This document shows positions 1 to 5,228 of a DNA stretch of 5,228 nt, piece after piece. The notes below the pieces were generated by a model. It was not told the DNA's origin. It did no database searches and saw nothing but the letters and a program-made list of their open reading frames with translations. The position numbers and the translations under genes are program-made. The DNA lies in the IMG/VR virus record IMGVR_UViG_2548876953_000003, positions 1-5,228 of that record, one strand, 5' to 3'. The DNA comes from a virus (taxonomy: Duplodnaviria; Heunggongvirae; Uroviricota; Caudoviricetes). The first letter of the stretch is position 1; each line of letters opens with the position of its first letter.

Positions 1-249
1 GCGAAAGATGCAGATACCGACGAGCATAAACATCAGCAGAACGCAGCAGCAAAGCAGTCAAAACCATCACCTACACCTGAACAGGTTCTAAAAGCATTCA
101 CTGACGCAGCATTGCAGAAAAACACCGTGGAAGAGCTTAAACAGGCGTTCGCCAAAGCGTGGAAGATGCTCGAAGGCACACCGGAGCAGCACAAAGCGCA
201 GGACGTTTACAACATCAGACGAGACGAATTAGAAGGAGCTGCTGCTTAA
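1..249 (+). CDS. 3' end of a phage gene whose start lies upstream of the window; function unknown (possibly a recombination/annealing-type partner of the downstream SSB, speculative)
   Basis: Frame 1 is open for 82 codons from the window edge (AKDADTDEHKHQQNAAAKQ...RRDELEGAAA) and ends at TAA 247-249, overlapping the next gene's ATG (TAATG). Absent from the ORF track only because it has no start in the window. Confidence 0.5.
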   Translation, partial: AKDADTDEHKHQQNAAAKQSKPSPTPEQVLKAFTDAALQKNTVEELKQAFAKAWKMLEGTPEQHKAQDVYNIRRDELEGAAA

Positions 250-632
250 TGGCACATTCGATTACTGTAAGACTAAACAAGCCCGCAAGAGAGTTTCAGA
301 CCGGGGAAAATATCGGATTCAACATCCGTGCTGGCGTTCAGTATTACGATCGCCAGACAAAAAAGAAAGAATGGACAAACTACAGCGCCGTTGTATTTGC
401 CAAGCCGGGAGCGCAAGCGGATTACTACCGTAGTGTTCTTGTTGAAGGTGGCATTGTGGAAATTACCGGAGAAAACATCAGGGTTGATGTTTATCAGGGG
501 CAAAATGGTCAATCAATCACTCTTGAATTACTGAATGCAAAGATTGGATTTGCAGCTTCAGGAAATGGCCCGCAGCAGCAAAGTAGTAACCAGCAGAACA
601 CTCCTGTATACGACGATTCCATCCCATTCTGA
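249..632 (+). CDS. Phage single-stranded DNA-binding (SSB-like) protein, 127 aa, OB-fold with host-SSB-like C-terminal tip
   Basis: ATG at 249 preceded by AAGGAG (233-238); the track's start at 159 adds an Arg-rich extension that is the out-of-frame reading of the upstream gene. The protein ends ...TPVYDDSIPF, matching the acidic C-terminal tip of E. coli SSB (DDDIPF), after a Gln/Asn-rich linker. The core (EWTNYSAVVFAK...GENIRVDVYQGQNGQ) resembles SSB OB-fold strands. Confidence 0.75.
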   Translation: MAHSITVRLNKPAREFQTGENIGFNIRAGVQYYDRQTKKKEWTNYSAVVFAKPGAQADYYRSVLVEGGIVEITGENIRVDVYQGQNGQSITLELLNAKIGFAASGNGPQQQSSNQQNTPVYDDSIPF

Positions 633-655
633 TTTAGAAAAATAAGGATTTAATT

Positions 656-949
656 ATGCCAGCGCCTCTGTATGGTGCGGATGACGCGCGCCGCTGTTCC
701 GGCAATTCCGTATCGGAGGTGCTGGATAAATTCAGAAAAAACTACGATCGGATAATGTCGCTACCGCAGGAAACGAAAGAGGAAAAGGAATTTCGCCATT
801 GTATATGGCTTGCAGAGAAAGAAGAACGCGAGCGAATTTACCAGACATCAATCCGACCATTCCGCAAAGCCACATATACCCACTTCCCTGAAATTGACCC
901 GCGCCTGCGTAATTACCGCTCACGCTATGGCGCTATCAGTAATGACTGA
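656..949 (+). CDS. Hypothetical small basic phage protein, 97 aa
   Basis: ATG 656 with AAGGA (644-648) 7 nt upstream; 23-bp gap after ssb on the same strand; stop TGA 947-949. No recognisable motif beyond scattered Cys/His. Confidence 0.6.
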
Positions 950-1120
950 GGAATTTACCATGAGAGGACTTGCATACAATCCCGGCATTCTTCCGGCAGA
1001 AATGATTATTCGCCAACGCGTAAAGCCAATGCCATCGAGAGAGTAATTGCTTAAGAGAAAGAGTTTCGGTTCTGTTAATGACAACAAATATCTGAATGCT
1101 ATGTGGCGGAGTGGGAAAAA

Positions 1121-1708
1121 ATGAAACAAATGTCACTAATTGAGATGGATGGTTTTCTGAAAGGTAAATGCATCCCACGAGATCTAAAGGTTAACGAAAC
1201 AAACGCTGAATATCTTGTCCGTAAGTTCGGTGAACTTGAATCAAAACTGGAAACGGCGTTGCGGGAGTGTCGTTCTGCTGGAATCACGATTGATAACCTT
1301 GAGGCCAAGTGCGCGGCGCTGGCAGCGGAGAGTGCGGGGATGAAGAAGTTCTGCAAAGACGCTGCATTCGATGCCGATTACGAAGCAGAGCTAGGTATGG
1401 AGCGTGGTTTATTCAGTGATGCGCTTAACGAAATCAAAACCCCAGCCACCGATGCTTTCCTGGCTGAAGTACGTGCGGAAGCACGCAACGAGGGTATTAA
1501 CTATGCCGCAAGCCGTCTTGCTGCTGCTTTCAACCACGGATTTATCAATAAGTCTTTACGTGAAGTTTTCGATGTTACGCGCATGATTCTGTCAGCGAAA
1601 GAAGAGTTGGCTAATGAACCGCATCCGATTGATGGCCTGTCTGGTGAATATGCGGAGAAATCCCTTGAAGAATGGGCGGAACAGATTCGCAAAGGAGGCA
1701 ACCAGTGA
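1121..1708 (+). CDS. Hypothetical phage protein, 195 aa, predicted helical
   Basis: ATG 1121 with GGAG (1108-1111) 9 nt upstream, preferred over the track's GTG at 1103. Stop TGA 1706-1708 overlaps the next gene's GTG start (GTGA). Family not recognised. Confidence 0.65.
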   Translation: MKQMSLIEMDGFLKGKCIPRDLKVNETNAEYLVRKFGELESKLETALRECRSAGITIDNLEAKCAALAAESAGMKKFCKDAAFDADYEAELGMERGLFSDALNEIKTPATDAFLAEVRAEARNEGINYAASRLAAAFNHGFINKSLREVFDVTRMILSAKEELANEPHPIDGLSGEYAEKSLEEWAEQIRKGGNQ

Positions 1709-2445
1709 GCAAGATTGACTATCAGGCACTGCGTGCCAAGGCAGAAAAAGCAACGTGTGGTGTATGGTCGCTCGAATATGGAGAGAGCCGATTTGATTGT
1801 GATGATGCGTTAATTCATCGTGAAGTTGTTGGATATCTTCCCATTTGCAGAATTGAAGGAGCACATCCAGAAAGCGGTTTCGATGAAGATTTCCAAATGG
1901 AACAGCAGGCCAATGCTGAATTCATCGCCGCAGCCAATCCGGCTACTGTGCTGGCATTACTGGATGAACTGGAAAGAAACCAGCAATACATCAAACGCCG
2001 CGATCAGGAGAACGAGGAAATTGCGCTAACGGTAGGGAAGCTGCGTGTTGAGCTTGAGGAAGCAAAATCAAAACTCAACGAGCAGCGTGAGTATTACGAA
2101 GGTGTTATCTCGGATGGGAGTAAACGTATTGCTGAACTGGAGAAAAGCGAAGAGCAACTCATTAACGAGCGTGACCATGCTGAGTCTGCTTTAGCTGATA
2201 TGTACTTCGCAACAACCGGGGATAGGCCTGAGTGGAGTAACTGTTTCAGTTTTTCAGATGCTGTCGATGCCGTAGTTGACAGAATTGCTGATTTAGAAGC
2301 CAAACAGCCATCGCCAGTAGTACCGGAAGAAAAACCAATGCCTAACCCTCTTAGCATGTACACAGTTGATGCTGTTGCAGCTATTGCAGAGGTGAGAGGC
2401 TGGAACGCCTGCCGTGCAGCCATGCTTAAGGGAGATAAATCATGA
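1705..2445 (+). CDS. Ead/Ea22-like family protein, 246 aa, N-terminal conserved domain plus central coiled coil
   Basis: GTG 1705 preceded by AAAGGAGG (1691-1698) at 6 nt; the track's ATG 1672 has no RBS. N-terminus SKIDYQALRAKAEKAT..W and the motif EFIAAANPATVLALLDELE match what I recall of lambdoid Ead/Ea22-like proteins; residues about 100-170 are heptad-rich. From recall, not a search. Confidence 0.7.
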   Translation: MSKIDYQALRAKAEKATCGVWSLEYGESRFDCDDALIHREVVGYLPICRIEGAHPESGFDEDFQMEQQANAEFIAAANPATVLALLDELERNQQYIKRRDQENEEIALTVGKLRVELEEAKSKLNEQREYYEGVISDGSKRIAELEKSEEQLINERDHAESALADMYFATTGDRPEWSNCFSFSDAVDAVVDRIADLEAKQPSPVVPEEKPMPNPLSMYTVDAVAAIAEVRGWNACRAAMLKGDKS

Positions 2446-2792
2446 TTAATCGAACCAAACTGGAGCACATCCTCGAGTATGCCAGGCAGCAGAGGCGCTT
2501 TGGCCAGCTTTGTAAAATTCTGCCAGGAGATATGGTTGAAATCGTGGAGATTGCCATGCGTAAGACTGGCAACTCTCCGGTAAGTCCGGGTGGTTGGATA
2601 AGCTGTAGTGAGCGAATGCCCGCTCAAGATGATTGGATTTTAATTTATTCAAAGCACGGTGAGTATATGGCAGGACAGGTACAAGAGGAATACGTGGAGT
2701 TGAGCGACGGCACTTTATCGTGGTTAGGGAACGCCTTGTACTGGATGCTGCTACCAGAACCGCCGCAGGGAGTGAATGATGAATTGGCCTGA
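2442..2792 (+). CDS. DUF551-like phage protein, 116 aa
   Basis: ATG 2442 overlaps the upstream stop (ATGA); GGAG at 2431-2434. The motifs WISCSERMP...W..YW and C-terminal WMLLPEPPQ fit the DUF551 pattern as I remember it. Confidence 0.7.
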   Translation: MINRTKLEHILEYARQQRRFGQLCKILPGDMVEIVEIAMRKTGNSPVSPGGWISCSERMPAQDDWILIYSKHGEYMAGQVQEEYVELSDGTLSWLGNALYWMLLPEPPQGVNDELA

Positions 2793-2862
2793 AGCATTCA
2801 CCGCTGTAGGAGTTGCAATCGCGGTGGCATTTATTCTGTATTCGCTTTTCCGCTGGGGATAA
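2776..2862 (+). CDS. Candidate small membrane peptide, 28 aa (MMNWPEAFTAVGVAIAVAFILYSLFRWG); single predicted transmembrane helix
   Basis: Not in the ORF track (too short). ATG 2776 and 2779, with GGGAG (2768-2772) inside the 3' end of the DUF551 gene; stop TAA 2860-2862 sits 4 nt before the next ATG. A 19-residue uncharged hydrophobic core is flanked by polar or charged ends. It exactly fills the only gap between two coupled genes. Confidence 0.35.
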   Translation: MMNWPEAFTAVGVAIAVAFILYSLFRWG

Positions 2863-2866
2863 AGGA

Positions 2867-3109
2867 ATGTTCGCTCTGATTCAACGTGGTCAGATATACA
2901 CCGATAGCGCCGGCTACCCGATAAAAATTCTTCGCTGCATAAACAACACTGTGTTGTACAGAAGAATGGATGGGCGAACACAGTCGGTAAAAATAAACGA
3001 TTTTAATGAACTGTTTGAACGGATCGATCACCAGGAATACCGACAAATTCTGGCTGAAACAGAGCAGGAGAACCATCTGAAAAAATTACGCGCCATGCAA
3101 AGGAGATAA
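2867..3109 (+). CDS. Hypothetical small phage protein, 80 aa
   Basis: ATG 2867 with GGGGA (2855-2859) 7 nt upstream; the track's start at 2813 is a TTG that overlaps the hydrophobic peptide ORF. Family not recognised. Confidence 0.55.
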   Translation: MFALIQRGQIYTDSAGYPIKILRCINNTVLYRRMDGRTQSVKINDFNELFERIDHQEYRQILAETEQENHLKKLRAMQRR

Positions 3110-3189
3110 ACCGGTAAAGGTGTTCGCGATAAAGGTGAATATCGGCAATGAATAACAATCCTCGCACTGACGGGGATTTCTTTTATCTG

Positions 3190-3214
3190 AACTCGCTACG
3201 GCGAGTTTTGTTTT
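3190..3214 (+). terminator. Weak intrinsic-terminator-like hairpin (attenuator?) immediately upstream of the zinc-ribbon gene
   Basis: Perfect 7-bp inverted repeat AACTCGC (3190-3196) / GCGAGTT (3201-3207) with 4-nt loop, then TTTTGTTTT. Only 4 of 7 pairs are GC, and it abuts the GGAG/ATG of the next gene. Confidence 0.3.
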
Positions 3215-3226
3215 ATGGAGATGATT

Positions 3227-3526
3227 ATGGCCTGTTCAACATTCAACCCTTTAACGTTACAGAAATACCAGCCAGACCCTGAAGATTTATGCTCACTGTG
3301 TGGCGGAAATCATGGTAAAGCTGCCATGATCGAATGTAAGGACAAAATCCACATATGCCTTAATTGCGTTGATGTCCTCGTTGATATCAAAAATGAAAGA
3401 GAAGATAAAAAGCGTAGCGAGGCTATTCGCGCCTTAGATTCATGGATGCGAGATGGGTATAGTGCTGCGCAAATTTATGACTTAGCCATTTCAAAAGGCG
3501 AAATACCAGGTGTGCGAATCGAATAA
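3227..3526 (+). CDS. Hypothetical Cys4 zinc-ribbon protein, 99 aa
   Basis: ATG 3227 with GGAG (3217-3220) 6 nt upstream (the track's start at 3215 lacks an RBS). Two CxxC pairs 18 residues apart (CSLCGG ... CLNCVD) indicate a zinc ribbon. Confidence 0.6.
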   Translation: MACSTFNPLTLQKYQPDPEDLCSLCGGNHGKAAMIECKDKIHICLNCVDVLVDIKNEREDKKRSEAIRALDSWMRDGYSAAQIYDLAISKGEIPGVRIE

Positions 3527-3561
3527 GAAGCGCACTCAAGCATCTTTTGGGGAAATCACAA

Positions 3562-3729
3562 ATGCACTTCCGAGTCACAGGTGAATTGAATGGAGAACCA
3601 TTCAACAGAGTTATCGAAGCAGAGGACATCAACGACTGCTATGACCACTGGATGATATGGGCGCAGATAGCACATGCAGACGTAACCAATATTCGAATTG
3701 AAGAACTGAAAGAACACCAAGCCGCCTGA
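3562..3729 (+). CDS. Hypothetical small phage protein, 55 aa
   Basis: ATG 3562 with GGGGA (3549-3553) 8 nt upstream; the track's start at 3547 is a TTG. Stop TGA 3727-3729 lies in the loop of the terminator below. Confidence 0.5.
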   Translation: MHFRVTGELNGEPFNRVIEAEDINDCYDHWMIWAQIAHADVTNIRIEELKEHQAA

Positions 3730-3744
3730 TGGCGGTTTTTTATT
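3719..3744 (+). terminator. Rho-independent terminator at the end of the early accessory gene array
   Basis: Stem AAGCCGCC (3719-3726) pairs with GGCGGTTT (3731-3738) including one G-U pair, loop TGAT, followed by a T-run TTTTTTATT (3736-3744). Confidence 0.65.
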
Positions 3745-3751
3745 GCCTGAT

Positions 3752-3767
3752 TTGCAGGTTCGATTCC
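3752..3767 (+). other. tRNA T-arm-like fragment (not an intact tRNA); matches my recollection of the argW tRNA-Arg(CCU) T-arm
   Basis: TTGCAGGTTCGATTCC contains the canonical T-loop GGTTCGATTCC, but the 3' partner of the T-stem and any acceptor stem or CCA are missing (next bases CTATTCGGAG). Lies between the terminator and the excisionase gene. Confidence 0.4.
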
Positions 3768-3786
3768 CTATTCGGAGATAGCACTC

Positions 3787-3987
3787 ATGCAACACGAACT
3801 ACAACCTGATTCACTGGTTGATTTGAAATTCATCATGGCTGATACTGGCTTTGGTAAAACCTTCATCTACGACCGGATTAAGTCCGGCGACCTGCCTAAA
3901 GCCAAAGTTATCCACGGTCGAGCAAGATGGTTATATCGTGACCATTGTGAATTCAAAAATAAGCTCTTAAGCCGCGCTAATGGGTAA
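3787..3987 (+). CDS. torI: AlpA/TorI-family excisionase (recombination directionality factor), 66 aa, winged-helix
   Basis: ATG 3787 with GGAG (3774-3777) 9 nt upstream. The sequence MQHELQPDSLVDLKFIMADTGFGKTFIYDRIKSGDLPKAKVIHGRARWLYRDHCEFKNKLLSRANG has the AlpA-family pattern and the length of KplE1 TorI. It is the last gene before the att-like junction. The symbol rests on recall and context. Confidence 0.8.
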   Translation: MQHELQPDSLVDLKFIMADTGFGKTFIYDRIKSGDLPKAKVIHGRARWLYRDHCEFKNKLLSRANG

Positions 3988-4003
3988 AATAGCGGGTAAA
4001 ATA
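3982..4003. repeat. Tandem direct repeat GGGTAAAATA-gc-GGGTAAAATA overlapping the excisionase stop codon; candidate integrase arm-type or RDF binding sites
   Basis: Two exact 10-bp copies (3982-3991 and 3994-4003) separated by 2 bp, about 60-80 bp from the putative att core. Confidence 0.45.
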
Positions 4004-4030
4004 TTTCTCACATCTAAAAAATACCATTCT

Positions 4031-4043
4031 AATCAATCCCCTG
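4031..4043. promoter_or_regulatory. IHF-like binding motif between the direct repeats and the att core
   Basis: AATCAATCCCCTG matches the IHF consensus WATCAANNNNTTR with one mismatch. Its position between arm-type repeats and core fits tyrosine-recombinase att architecture. Confidence 0.25.
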
Positions 4044-4060
4044 CCACTCTAAGTAGATGT

Positions 4061-4075
4061 CTGCAGGGGACACCA
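4061..4075 (+). other. Putative prophage attR core: a copy of the 3' end of tRNA-Arg (argW), CTGCAGGGGACACCA
   Basis: The sequence ends in ...GACACCA like a tRNA 3' terminus and equals what I recall as the last 15 nt of argW and the KplE1 att core. It is preceded by an 8-bp inverted partner TCCCCTGC (4037-4044) of GCAGGGGA (4063-4070). Phage-type genes lie to the left, chromosomal-type DNA to the right. Confidence 0.55.
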
Positions 4076-4515
4076 GATACCCTTCAAACGAAATCTACCT
4101 TCACCCCGTAAAAGATAGGTTTGGCAGCACACTTGCCTTATATCTACTCATTTTTACTGCAACAGGTTGAAATCTCAGCACTGTCAGAAAGCGCTGATGA
4201 CTAAACAGCCCTGGGCCGGGCGATGTAACCATCACACAGAATCCTGATAGCGAAATATGGCGTGACTCGATACTTCACTCCGCAATGCATTCCTTGATGA
4301 ATTCGCAGGACCGTGATACACGGGACAGGTCGCTGAATGACGACAATGTCCTGGAAATCAGCGAACCGCGCATCTGAAGTACATTTGAGCGACTGTACCA
4401 GAACATGAATGAGGCGTTTGGATTAGGTGATTATTAGCAGGGCTAAGCACTTTAGTATTATTATTTTCCGGTTGAGGGATAGGGAGATATCGACAACAAC
4501 CGGAAAAGTTTACGT

Positions 4516-5177
4516 CTATATTGCTGAAGGTACAGGCGTTTCCATAACTATTTGCTCGCGTTTTTTACTCAGGAAGAAAATGCCAAATAGCAACATCAGG
4601 CAGACAATACCCGAAATTGCGAAGAAAACTGTCTGGTAGCCTGCGTGGTCAAAGAGTATCCCAGTCGGCGTTGAAAGCAGCACAATCCCAAGCGAACTGG
4701 CAATTTGAAAACCAATCAGAAAGATCGTCGACGACAGGCGCTTATCAAAATTTGCCACGCTGTATTTGAAGACGGATATGACACAAAGTGGAACCTCAAT
4801 AGCATGTAACAGCTTCACTAATGAAATAATCCAGGGGTTAACGAACAGCGCGCAGGAAAGGATACGCAACGCCATAATCACAACACCGATAAGTAATGCA
4901 TTTTTTGGCCCTACCCGATTCACAAAGAAAGGAATAATCGCCATGCATAGCGCTTCGAGTACCACCTGGAATGAGTTGAGATAACCATACAGGCGCGTTC
5001 CTACATCGTGTGATTCGAATAAACCTGCATAAAAGACAGGAAAAAGTTGTTGATCAAAAATGTTATAGAAAGACCACGTCCCCACAATAAATATGACGAA
5101 AACCCAGAAGTTTCGATCCTTGAAAACTGCGATAAAATCCTCTTTTTTTACCCCTCCCGCATCCGCCGCTACGCACT
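4516..5177 (-). pseudogene. cscB: 3' fragment (about 220 codons) of a LacY-family (oligosaccharide:H+ symporter) permease, probably sucrose permease cscB, truncated at its 5' side by IS30
   Basis: The minus-strand frame open from 5184 down to stop 4516-4518 aligns with LacY residues about 195-417 (FKDRNFWVFVIFIVGTWSFYNIFDQQLF vs LacY [42 protein letters not shown] vs HMFEVPFLLVGCFKY). Similarity stops at 5177/5178 where IS30 begins, so no N-terminal half is present. The symbol cscB is inferred from family plus the argW-csc/dsd locus context. Confidence 0.65.
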
Positions 5178-5228
5178 TGTAGATTCAATCTGTCAATGCA
5201 ACACCCCTTTCAATTATCTCTTTCGGTG
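5178..5228 (-). mobile_element. Right end of insertion sequence IS30 (terminal inverted repeat plus 3' end of the transposase gene), continuing beyond the window
   Basis: 5178-5203 reads TGTAGATTCAATCTGTCAATGCAACA, matching the roughly 26-bp IS30 terminal inverted repeat as I recall it (TGTAGATTCAATTGGTCAACGCAACA on the other end). The minus-strand frame 5228 to 5185 encodes PKEIIERGVALTD followed by stop, matching the IS30 transposase C-terminus. Confidence 0.65.
5185..5228 (-). CDS. IS30 transposase (InsI-type), last 13 codons plus stop; the remainder lies beyond the window end
   Basis: Minus-strand translation ...PKEIIERGVALTD, stop codon complementary to 5185-5187, located inside the IS30 inverted repeat as in IS30. 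Confidence 0.55.
   Translation of the reverse strand, partial: PKEIIERGVALTD

Follow-up and report, generated by a model that had tools for sequence, protein, structure and literature searches.

We analyzed a stretch of 5,228 nucleotides (nt) from a Caudoviricetes virus (IMG/VR virus record IMGVR_UViG_2548876953_000003, positions 1 to 5,228, hereafter the window), and in it three overlapping open reading frames (ORFs) designated ORF1, ORF2 and ORF3. Our results make it likely that these genes form part of the non-essential early-left (pL) accessory region in a lambdoid prophage of P22/HK620 type, integrated in E. coli at argW/dsd-csc, and that they constitute an ordinary, catalogued stretch of freely reshuffled modules rather than a fixed new three-protein system. 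The region is named 'ea' in P22 and 'exo-xis' in lambda and has long been known as hypervariable and non-essential. A preliminary description, made from the sequence alone, had presented the three genes as a translationally coupled module of fixed stoichiometry and as a candidate undescribed functional system. The genes are identical to annotated database proteins, profile searches place them in the catalogued Ea22, EaE and DUF551 families, and the hypervariability and mosaicism of the region are already published, so that the latter proposal is not upheld.

If the three genes formed a fixed module, they would be expected to travel together. We counted their occurrence in 5,426 complete E. coli genomes, requiring coverage of at least 80% of the query. 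Taken alone, ORF1 was found in 71 genomes, ORF2 in 126 and ORF3 in 131, whereas ORF1 with ORF2, and likewise all three genes, were found in 7 and ORF2 with ORF3 in 10. Only three of the seven trio-carrying genomes hold the segment complete; three break at position 2620 inside ORF3 and one starts at 1239 inside ORF1. The genes thus assort largely independently and the mosaic joints lie inside genes, which argues against a fixed three-gene module. The count of 10 genomes for ORF2 with ORF3 understates the linkage between the C-terminal part of ORF2 and ORF3 because of the 80% coverage rule, and queries with blocks correct for this. The block at 1121-2057, comprising ORF1 and the first 118 codons of ORF2, is present in 68 genomes, and the block at 2140-2620, which holds the C-terminal part of ORF2 and the N-terminal part of ORF3 and spans their junction, is present in 130, nearly the full number for ORF3. 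Together the results show that ORF1 and ORF3 are unlinked and that the C-terminal part of ORF2 and ORF3 are linked; co-occurrence, proposed as a check, fails for the trio and stands for this pair.

The joints were examined further in IMG/VR by cutting the three proteins into ten modules and mapping these onto 240 loci (the best 80 matches per query). The module order is constant: ORF1 N-block, coil, variable insert, EaE-type C-domain, Ead N-domain, Ea22 coiled coil, two C-terminal modules, a short helical N-piece and DUF551. Within this order almost any subset of modules is seen, with 31 architectures among 378 distinct ORFs, and from phage to phage the string is divided differently over the cistrons. 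DUF551 is fused to the last module of ORF2 (2Cb) in 15 ORFs, to the Ea22 coil in 10, and to the coil with both ORF2 C-modules in 3. In other phages, 21 distinct fused ORFs carry the last module of ORF2 (...PVVPEEKPMPNPL.MY.VDAVAAIAEVRGWNACRAAML...), a linker and DUF551; in these fused relatives the frame runs on after ...RAAML into the linker and DUF551. Three loci (L211, L212 and L219) hold single ORFs composed of ORF1 residues 1-43, ORF2 residues 124 to ~243, a linker and DUF551. At the family level synteny is loose. ORF1-family genes have an Ead module at most 2.5 kb downstream in 35 of 62 loci and are followed by a DUF551 module in 36 of 62; synteny is strongest for Ead with DUF551.

Profiles of sequence depth across these loci reveal islands at ~1440-1470, 1680-1740, 1950-2060 and 2570-2620 that are far more widely shared than the sequence on either side. 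Because some depth peaks fell on peptide patterns that had served to retrieve the loci, the profile was recomputed for each selection group. The islands hold in loci selected by a different gene, and hence are no selection artefact; in the loci selected by DUF551, for instance, depth is 31-34 at the ORF1/ORF2 junction, compared with 7 upstream and 3-10 downstream of it. ORF1 and the coiled coil of ORF2 each contain one copy of a 10-nt direct repeat, AATCAAAACT, whose codon phase is the same in both genes; a near copy, AAATCAAAAC, lies at the boundary between the variable insert and the C-domain of ORF1 (Table 1). The repeat is the exact joint in L211 and L212, where the alignments to window positions 641/656-1248 and 2066-2427 overlap by 10 nt. 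Likewise, its two copies coincide with the E. coli mosaic breakpoints at 1239 and 2057/2064. The significance of the repeat is modest, as ~0.4 shared 10-mers are expected by chance between ORF1 and ORF2 (588 x 741 / 4^10). Exchange takes place at short, widely shared DNA islands and microhomologies, inside genes and at one gene junction.

Phage mosaics arise by relaxed homologous recombination of Red/Rad52-like recombinases (PMC2327257, PMC3945230). As in lambdoid mosaicism generally (PMC2327257, PMC3945230), short shared islands flank the exchanged segments here, with one joint at the 10-nt repeat, and an Erf-family (Rad52-like) recombinase is encoded just upstream in the same operon. The segment differs in that most joints lie inside genes, at module boundaries, and in that one island is a translation-initiation cassette across a gene junction.

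The preliminary description had read coupling and fixed stoichiometry from the overlaps between the genes. All three ORFs proved intact, and their stop/start overlaps and individual Shine-Dalgarno (SD) sequences were confirmed at the coordinates given in Table 1. We found neither promoter-like nor terminator-like sites on the + strand from position 1 to ~3150, and one transcription unit covers ORF1 to ORF3; the genes are indeed overlapping, co-transcribed accessory genes of the early region. GTG 1705 is supported as the start of ORF2, in preference to the in-frame ATG 1672, because the Pfam alignment begins at residue 2 (model position 1), because RefSeq annotates the same start in a 99.9% identical locus, and because other phages keep the junction while the sequence 5' of the GTG diverges. 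The chain of overlaps does not stop at the three genes. On one side, the natural stop of the DUF2737 gene overlaps the ORF1 start as ATGA 1121-1124, and on the other a small ORF overlaps the end of ORF3 and adjoins the DUF4222 gene. Elsewhere in the same prophage, 4-nt overlaps are annotated at ren/P and P/replication protein, and erf overlaps the next gene by 1 nt. Since the chain extends to both sides and such overlaps occur elsewhere, they mark no special unit, and delimiting the segment as three genes is arbitrary.

Furthermore, the ORF1/ORF2 junction is not particular to ORF1. We found its sequence, CGCAAAGGAGGCAACCAGTGAGCAAGATT, in 102 IMG/VR loci, where it stands in 85 distinct contexts. 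Clustering of the ORFs that terminate in it gave 12 groups (57, 8, 5 and 3 members and eight singletons), of which the largest comprises ORF1/HkaH-type C-domains, and in two other groups DUF2737 stands directly upstream. The junction-ending ORFs that we inspected all end in ...KGG(N/S/K)Q-stop, mostly in ...RKGGNQ-stop. The same ending on unrelated upstream ORFs indicates that RKGGNQ is a footprint of the ribosome-binding site of the Ead gene, and not a feature of ORF1. Because the junction occurs in 85 contexts, after at least several unrelated genes, it is uninformative on a partnership of ORF1 with ORF2, and fixed stoichiometry cannot be read from it.

Ends of the same kind are found downstream of Ead/Ea22 genes. 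Of 106 distinct Ead/Ea22 ORFs, 59 terminate in IKGE-stop, encoded by AAAGGAGAGTGA or ATCAAAGGAGAGTGA; 1 nt separates this stop from the following ATG, and the genes that follow vary. Dydecka et al. described a '+GE' (K/RGE) C-terminal motif of Ea22 and called its significance unknown (PMC7093339). In these 59 ORFs the K/RGE motif is encoded by AAAGGAGAG, with the start ATG of the variable gene behind it 7-8 nt further on, and is most simply explained as the putative SD sequence of the next cistron. Lambda retains this cassette (...GGCATTCGCATCAAAGGAGAGTGAGATC...), but has ATC in place of the ATG, and the following 191 nt hold no annotated gene. The KGDKS-stop ending of ORF2, encoded by AAGGGAGATAAATCATGA, is a rarer cassette of the same kind. 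The stop/start overlaps belong to portable cassettes (RKGGNQ-stop/GTG, IKGE-stop/nATG and KGDKS-stop/ATG) in which the last upstream codons encode the next SD sequence. With the SD sequence carried in this way, any module can sit upstream without loss of downstream translation.

Obligate coupling would be expected to leave start sites weak or hidden. In silico, every cistron has a strong SD sequence at 6-9 nt and its start site is predicted not to be sequestered; the RNA folds of four junctions were not more stable than shuffled controls (z 0.0, 0.36, -0.58 and 0.85). In the absence of a sequestering mRNA structure the overlaps permit coupling and do not enforce 1:1 stoichiometry.

ORF1 had been described as resembling no family. 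This does not hold: ORF1 matches phrog_614 over its full length (aa 1-195, 3.3e-94), has 892 relatives among 50%-identity cluster representatives, and is homologous to EaE and HkaH. The closest protein cluster is 99% identical, 195 aa long, and has 140 member sequences in public collections. In BLASTP comparisons, HK620 HkaH matches at 1e-54, with aa 1-75 nearly identical, and P22 EaE at 7e-25, with 39% identity over aa 60-192, which includes the C-domain. Across 19 aligned relatives, a conserved N block (aa 1-43) is followed by a helical segment, a hypervariable insert of 0 to ~90 residues, and a C-domain conserved from T107. The same C-domain forms the C-terminal domain in proteins that start with an Ead N-domain (phrog_368; six distinct examples). 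Searches of Pfam-A with ORF1 and with its N and C parts gave no match, even at E up to 10; ORF1 has no Pfam-A match to DUF4752, a name found only in the NCBI source annotations of many homologues. We rejected the idea that ORF1 and ORF2 are paralogues, as they have no significant pairwise similarity. At a near-identical locus (L001 9121-9704, equivalent to window 1121-1704), the RefSeq pipeline PGAP places an 'incomplete' pseudogene over the initial 42 codons of ORF1 and annotates nothing in the remainder. We regard this fragment as an annotation failure, given the intact frame and the family to which ORF1 belongs.

ORF2 is Ead/Ea22-like, as proposed: it matches PF13935 (Ead_Ea22) with 131 bits (cut-off 27, 5.8e-38), with aa 2-146 on model positions 1-139. 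Residues 15-104 of lambda Ea22 align with ORF2 aa 51-149 over 99 columns at 69% identity, and the proteins are near-identical from ORF2 aa 84/Ea22 aa 39. Against HK620 HkaG, identity is 61% overall, with only a handful of mismatches in aa 1-118. From ~aa 150 ORF2 is unlike both, and Pfam gave no match to this C-terminal part. By the block counts given above, ORF2 is a recombinant of two mosaic blocks, a chimera joined at ~2057-2140 in the conserved coiled coil.

The assignment of ORF3 to DUF551 was likewise borne out (PF04448, 38.4 bits, cut-off 22), with aa 51-109 on model positions 1-68. Twenty aligned relatives are at least 90% conserved from G43 to the end, and share with ORF3 the invariant motif W52-I-S-C-S...W101..L-P-E-P. 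The parts that precede DUF551 in these relatives are mutually unrelated, and include Ead coils and MazG-like DUF550 domains; the N part of ORF3 itself has no Pfam match. An AlphaFold2 (AF2) model of ORF3 displays two helices and a small five-stranded beta domain (pLDDT ~70; 58.6 overall), and that of ORF1 is all-helical (pLDDT 54). Structure prediction, proposed as a check, added little, the models of ORF1 and ORF3, built from alignments of close homologues, being of low confidence and that of ORF1 too poor for a fold search. A Foldseek search against viral models returned nothing at E <= 0.001, and a sequence search of the PDB with ORF1, ORF2 and ORF3 returned nothing below E 0.6.

The origin of the window was established by its 99.9% identity, over the whole length, to three complete E. 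coli genomes, in which it forms the right end of a lambdoid prophage. The prophage genes there are ordered ninB, ren, P, replication protein, cII, cro-like, repressor, kil, Erf, ssb-like, abc2, DUF2737, Ead/Ea22-like, DUF551, DUF4222, two small genes and torI, and the host genes beyond torI are cscB, cscK, cscA, cscR and dsdA. ORF2 thereby falls in the pL operon between erf/ssb-like/abc2 and a torI-type xis; this xis matches TorI, encoded by the cryptic prophage CPS-53 of K-12, at 100% identity. DUF2737 and ORF1 to ORF3 lie directly downstream of abc2, which encodes an anti-RecBCD protein.

Comparison with characterized phages places the trio as the counterpart of P22 eaE-eaD-eaA and HK620 hkaH-hkaG-hkaE, in the same order after abc2 and DUF2737. 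The P22 order is abc2, orf56, eaE, orf45, eaF, eaD, eaI, eaA, eaG, eaC, xis, int, and that of HK620 is abc2, hkaI (DUF2737), hkaH, hkaG (Ead/Ea22), hkaF, hkaE (DUF551), eaG, torI-type xis, attP, int. HK620 has 4-nt overlaps at hkaI/hkaH and hkaH/hkaG, and the DUF551 domain of ORF3 is 41% identical to that of EaA and 32% to that of HkaE. In contrast, both phages carry extra genes between the members (orf45, eaF and eaI; hkaF), the C-domain of ORF1 is unlike that of HkaH, the C-terminal part of ORF2 is unlike HkaG and EaD, and EaA and HkaE have long, dissimilar N-terminal parts before DUF551. Lambda Ea22 and the Ea22 variants V1-V3 of Shiga toxin (Stx) phages (PMC7093339, PMC10834534, PMC8614690) share with ORF2 the Ead_Ea22 signature, an N-domain, coiled coil and variable C-terminal domain, mosaicism, and the place in the pL operon between recombination genes and xis. 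DUF551 is the C-terminal domain of V2 (PMC10834534), and in 933W ea22 is split in two genes (PMC8614690). Here, however, aa ~150-246 of ORF2 are unrelated to the solved C-terminal domain of lambda, DUF551 occupies a cistron of its own together with a 42-aa N-piece, the ending of ORF2 is KGDKS-stop and not K/RGE-stop, and the neighbours are of P22/HK620 type (erf, abc2) and not of lambda type (exo, bet, orf60a-63). YfdS of CPS-53, at the same argW/torI locus (PMC4776307), is a DUF551 protein of similar size, encoded at the corresponding place in its operon a few genes upstream of torI, yet its similarity to ORF3 is marginal (E 0.014) and its neighbours yfdQ, yfdR and yfdT are unrelated to ORF1 and ORF2.

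The preliminary description held that none of the three genes has a defined function. No biochemical mechanism is known, and to that extent this stands; phenotypes and architecture are however published for ea22 (PMC7093339, PMC10834534) and phenotypes for YfdS (PMC4776307). Ea22 is made very early from pL. Lambda ea22 is non-essential (PMC10695390). In lambda and Stx phages ea22 is pro-lysogenic and favours host survival (PMC7093339), and the Ea22 protein forms tetramers in which a coiled-coil stalk carries a variable, acidic C-terminal domain; this domain folds separately and is proposed to bind a host partner (PMC10834534). Loss of YfdS sensitises cells to H2O2 (PMC4776307). By analogy with lambda and Stx Ea22, we would expect ORF1 and ORF2 to oligomerize as coiled-coil stalks bearing C-terminal heads that can be exchanged, and ORF3 to be a small beta-barrel DUF551 head with a short helical handle, of the kind fused to such stalks in other phages. 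The proteins would be made within minutes of infection or induction, and may bind host or phage factors and so bias the lysis-lysogeny decision, host replication or stress physiology. Each would act largely alone, ORF2 and ORF3 possibly jointly.

Several points weigh against this account. The tetramer and the pro-lysogenic phenotype are known only from lambda, P27 and Phi24B proteins (PMC7093339, PMC10834534), and the phenotype need not transfer to ORF2, as the N- and C-terminal domains of lambda/Stx Ea22 differ. The AF2 models are of low confidence and the fold matches weak and generic. The E. coli counts hinge on the 80% coverage threshold and include many closely related genomes of Shiga toxin-producing E. 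coli, and the IMG/VR loci, as best matches, are a biased sample. Moreover, DUF551 lies downstream of the Ead gene in 44 of 58 loci and Ead lies upstream of the DUF551 module in 62 of 72, a synteny that could stem from co-function rather than from mere position in a short region.

An alternative, clearly less probable than independent modules, is that ORF2 and ORF3 are a split EaA/Ea22_V2-type protein, co-produced through the ATGA overlap; the stalk and C-terminal module of ORF2 and the DUF551 head of ORF3 would re-associate, perhaps through the 42-aa N-piece of ORF3, and function as a unit, with ORF1 excluded. The 21 fused single ORFs of other phages point this way, as does the near-equal number of genomes with the junction-spanning block and with ORF3. 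The last module of ORF2 also precedes the ORF3 N-piece in 25 of the 26 loci that contain this piece, and a comparable fission of ea22 is documented in 933W (PMC8614690). On the other hand, DUF551 is joined to a wide range of unrelated N-terminal partners, MazG-like DUF550 and Ead coils among them, and looks promiscuous, the linkage is seen at 99-100% nucleotide identity and may reflect recent common descent, and in a compact operon deletion readily fuses neighbours in frame. Joint travel of the C-terminal part of ORF2 with ORF3, and the fused polypeptides elsewhere, nonetheless make a functional link between ORF2 and ORF3 plausible. We rate as very improbable the extension of such a link to a dedicated three-component system for host takeover, exclusion or anti-defence, with stoichiometry fixed by translational coupling. 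The cistrons do overlap and have an SD sequence each, the rare polypeptides of L211, L212 and L219 join an ORF1 N-block, an ORF2 C-part and DUF551, and the order ORF1-type, Ead, DUF551 recurs at family level in P22 and HK620. However, co-occurrence largely refutes such a system, as the trio occurs in so few genomes compared with the single genes; Ead or DUF551 follows an ORF1-family gene in only a modest fraction of loci, the joints lie inside genes, the ORF1/ORF2 junction is generic, the overlap chain extends on both sides, and no PADLOC match rises above noise. PADLOC defence models gave only coiled-coil noise for ORF2 (JetC, E 0.004-0.05) and nothing for ORF1, ORF3 or their neighbours, and an NCBIfam search gave coiled-coil noise only.

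The variable heads might instead be arms-race effectors for anti-defence or exclusion, each directed at a different host or competitor target, which would explain the diversity of heads on stalks near abc2. The ORF1 insert, the C-terminal part of ORF2 and the DUF551 partners are hypervariable, the genes lie next to an anti-RecBCD gene, and relatives fuse DUF551 to MazG-like deoxynucleoside triphosphate pyrophosphohydrolase domains. We nevertheless consider this unlikely: the proteins have no sequence or fold similarity to known anti-defence or defence proteins, no paper in the library that we searched connects the exo-xis region or these families to anti-defence, and the published phenotypes concern the lysis-lysogeny balance. 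Least probable of all is that ORF1 is a decaying, non-functional chimera and the module partly junk. Such decay would fit the PGAP pseudogene fragment at the 99.9% identical locus, the nonsense codon in the adjoining DUF2737 gene, and a prophage that may be defective. Yet the 195-codon frame is intact with a full-length phrog_614 match, the closest cluster (99% identical, 195 aa) has 140 members, the DNA recurs in 71 complete genomes at 80% coverage or more, and the layout of N-block, variable insert and C-domain is kept across many diverged relatives. Our preference accordingly stays with independently assorting modules of the early-left accessory region.

Features of the segment and its borders are listed in Table 1. 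RefSeq marks the DUF2737 gene as a pseudogene with an internal stop, and the apparent intergenic gap before ORF1 is the 3' remainder of this pseudogene. Behind ORF3 we noticed a small, conserved, unannotated ORF that encodes one hydrophobic helix and could specify a small membrane peptide of the operon. Its 18 protein variants in IMG/VR loci keep the frame and the hydrophobic character, and it stands directly after a DUF551 module in 57 of 63 occurrences, although only 55 of 180 DUF551 modules have it behind them. It has no match in PHROG or Pfam.

Table 1. Features of the ORF1-ORF3 segment; positions are those of the window, residues those of the protein named.
Feature	Position	Residues	Strand	Remarks
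DUF2737 gene (phrog_1117)	960..1124		+	pseudogene; in-frame TAA 1044-1046; halves match phrog_1117 positions 1-28 and 30-54
ORF1	ATG 1121 to TGA 1706-1708	195 aa	+	SD GGAG 1108-1111, spacing 9 nt
ORF1 N block	1121-1249	1-43	+	conserved
Direct repeat AATCAAAACT, copy 1	1239-1248		+	10 nt; inside ORF1
ORF1 helical/coiled-coil segment		44-75	+	
ORF1 hypervariable insert	1346-1435	76-105	+	
Near copy AAATCAAAAC	1431-1440		+	boundary of ORF1 variable insert and C-domain
ORF1 C-terminal domain	1436-1705	106-195	+	conserved
Portable junction cassette CGCAAAGGAGGCAACCAGTGAGCAAGAT	1686..1713		+	last upstream codons (RKGGNQ-stop), SD, GTG start of Ead/Ea22 gene
ORF1/ORF2 overlap	1705-1708		+	GTGA
ORF2	GTG 1705 to TGA 2443-2445	246 aa	+	SD AAAGGAGG 1691-1698, spacing 6 nt
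ORF2 Ead N-terminal domain and coiled coil		1-~150	+	
Direct repeat AATCAAAACT, copy 2	2066-2075		+	10 nt; inside ORF2 coiled coil
ORF2 variable C-terminal part		~150-246	+	
ORF2/ORF3 junction	2428..2445		+	AAGGGAG SD in last codons of ORF2 (KGDKS-stop, AAGGGAGATAAATCATGA) and ATGA overlap
ORF2/ORF3 overlap	2442-2445		+	ATGA
ORF3	ATG 2442 to TGA 2790-2792	116 aa	+	SD AAGGGAG 2428-2434, spacing 7 nt
ORF3 two-helix N-terminal part		1-42 (42 aa)	+	
ORF3 DUF551 domain		43-116	+	
Small ORF, unannotated	2776(2779)-2862	27-28 aa	+	single hydrophobic helix MMNWPEAFTAVGVAIAVAFILYSLFRWG; stops 4 nt before DUF4222 start 2867

Other observations concern the rest of the window. Positions 3215(3227)-3526 encode a 99-103-aa protein of phrog_3680 with a CxxC...CxxC motif; it resembles the ClpX C4 zinc finger only weakly, below threshold (E 0.015). 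Terminator-like hairpins at 3157-3178 and 3189-3208 precede this gene, and a strong terminator-like hairpin at 3719-3738 follows the small gene next to it. At 3787-3987 and 3988-4515, no integrase gene follows the TorI-identical xis, and the junction of prophage and host falls between xis and cscB, which is on the minus strand; likewise, HK620 has attP between its TorI-type xis and int. Upstream, the 127-aa protein encoded after erf (249-632) matches only the C-terminal part of the phage single-stranded DNA-binding protein (SSB) family (phrog_44 positions 89-228 of 271) and has no match in Pfam; possibly it is an SSB, divergent or truncated, that partners the Erf recombinase. Minus-strand ORFs at 2094-2627, 1592-1864 and 1099-1356 were dismissed for want of family support. 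Scans of the window returned no Rfam match and no tRNA gene.

Our analysis offers modest refinements to the picture of this region: cassettes that would explain C-terminal peptides, a joint at a 10-nt repeat, a small ORF behind DUF551, and the mis-annotation of ORF1. The RKGGNQ and K/RGE endings are better not taken for functional motifs of the proteins. The domain map obtained from module repartitioning suggests joint testing of the C-terminal part of ORF2 with DUF551, and both points may be useful for work on the exo-xis proteins of Stx phages. More speculatively, and against what we think probable, the region might be a 'plug-and-play' display of effectors, in which conserved coiled-coil stalks and portable junction cassettes would let phages swap, fuse and split heads (EaE-type C-domain, ORF2 C-modules, DUF551) by short-homology recombination, split pieces such as ORF2 and ORF3 would re-assemble, and each head would have its own host factor or defence target. 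If this were true, cistron boundaries in the region would be exchangeable parts of the system and not fixed gene borders.

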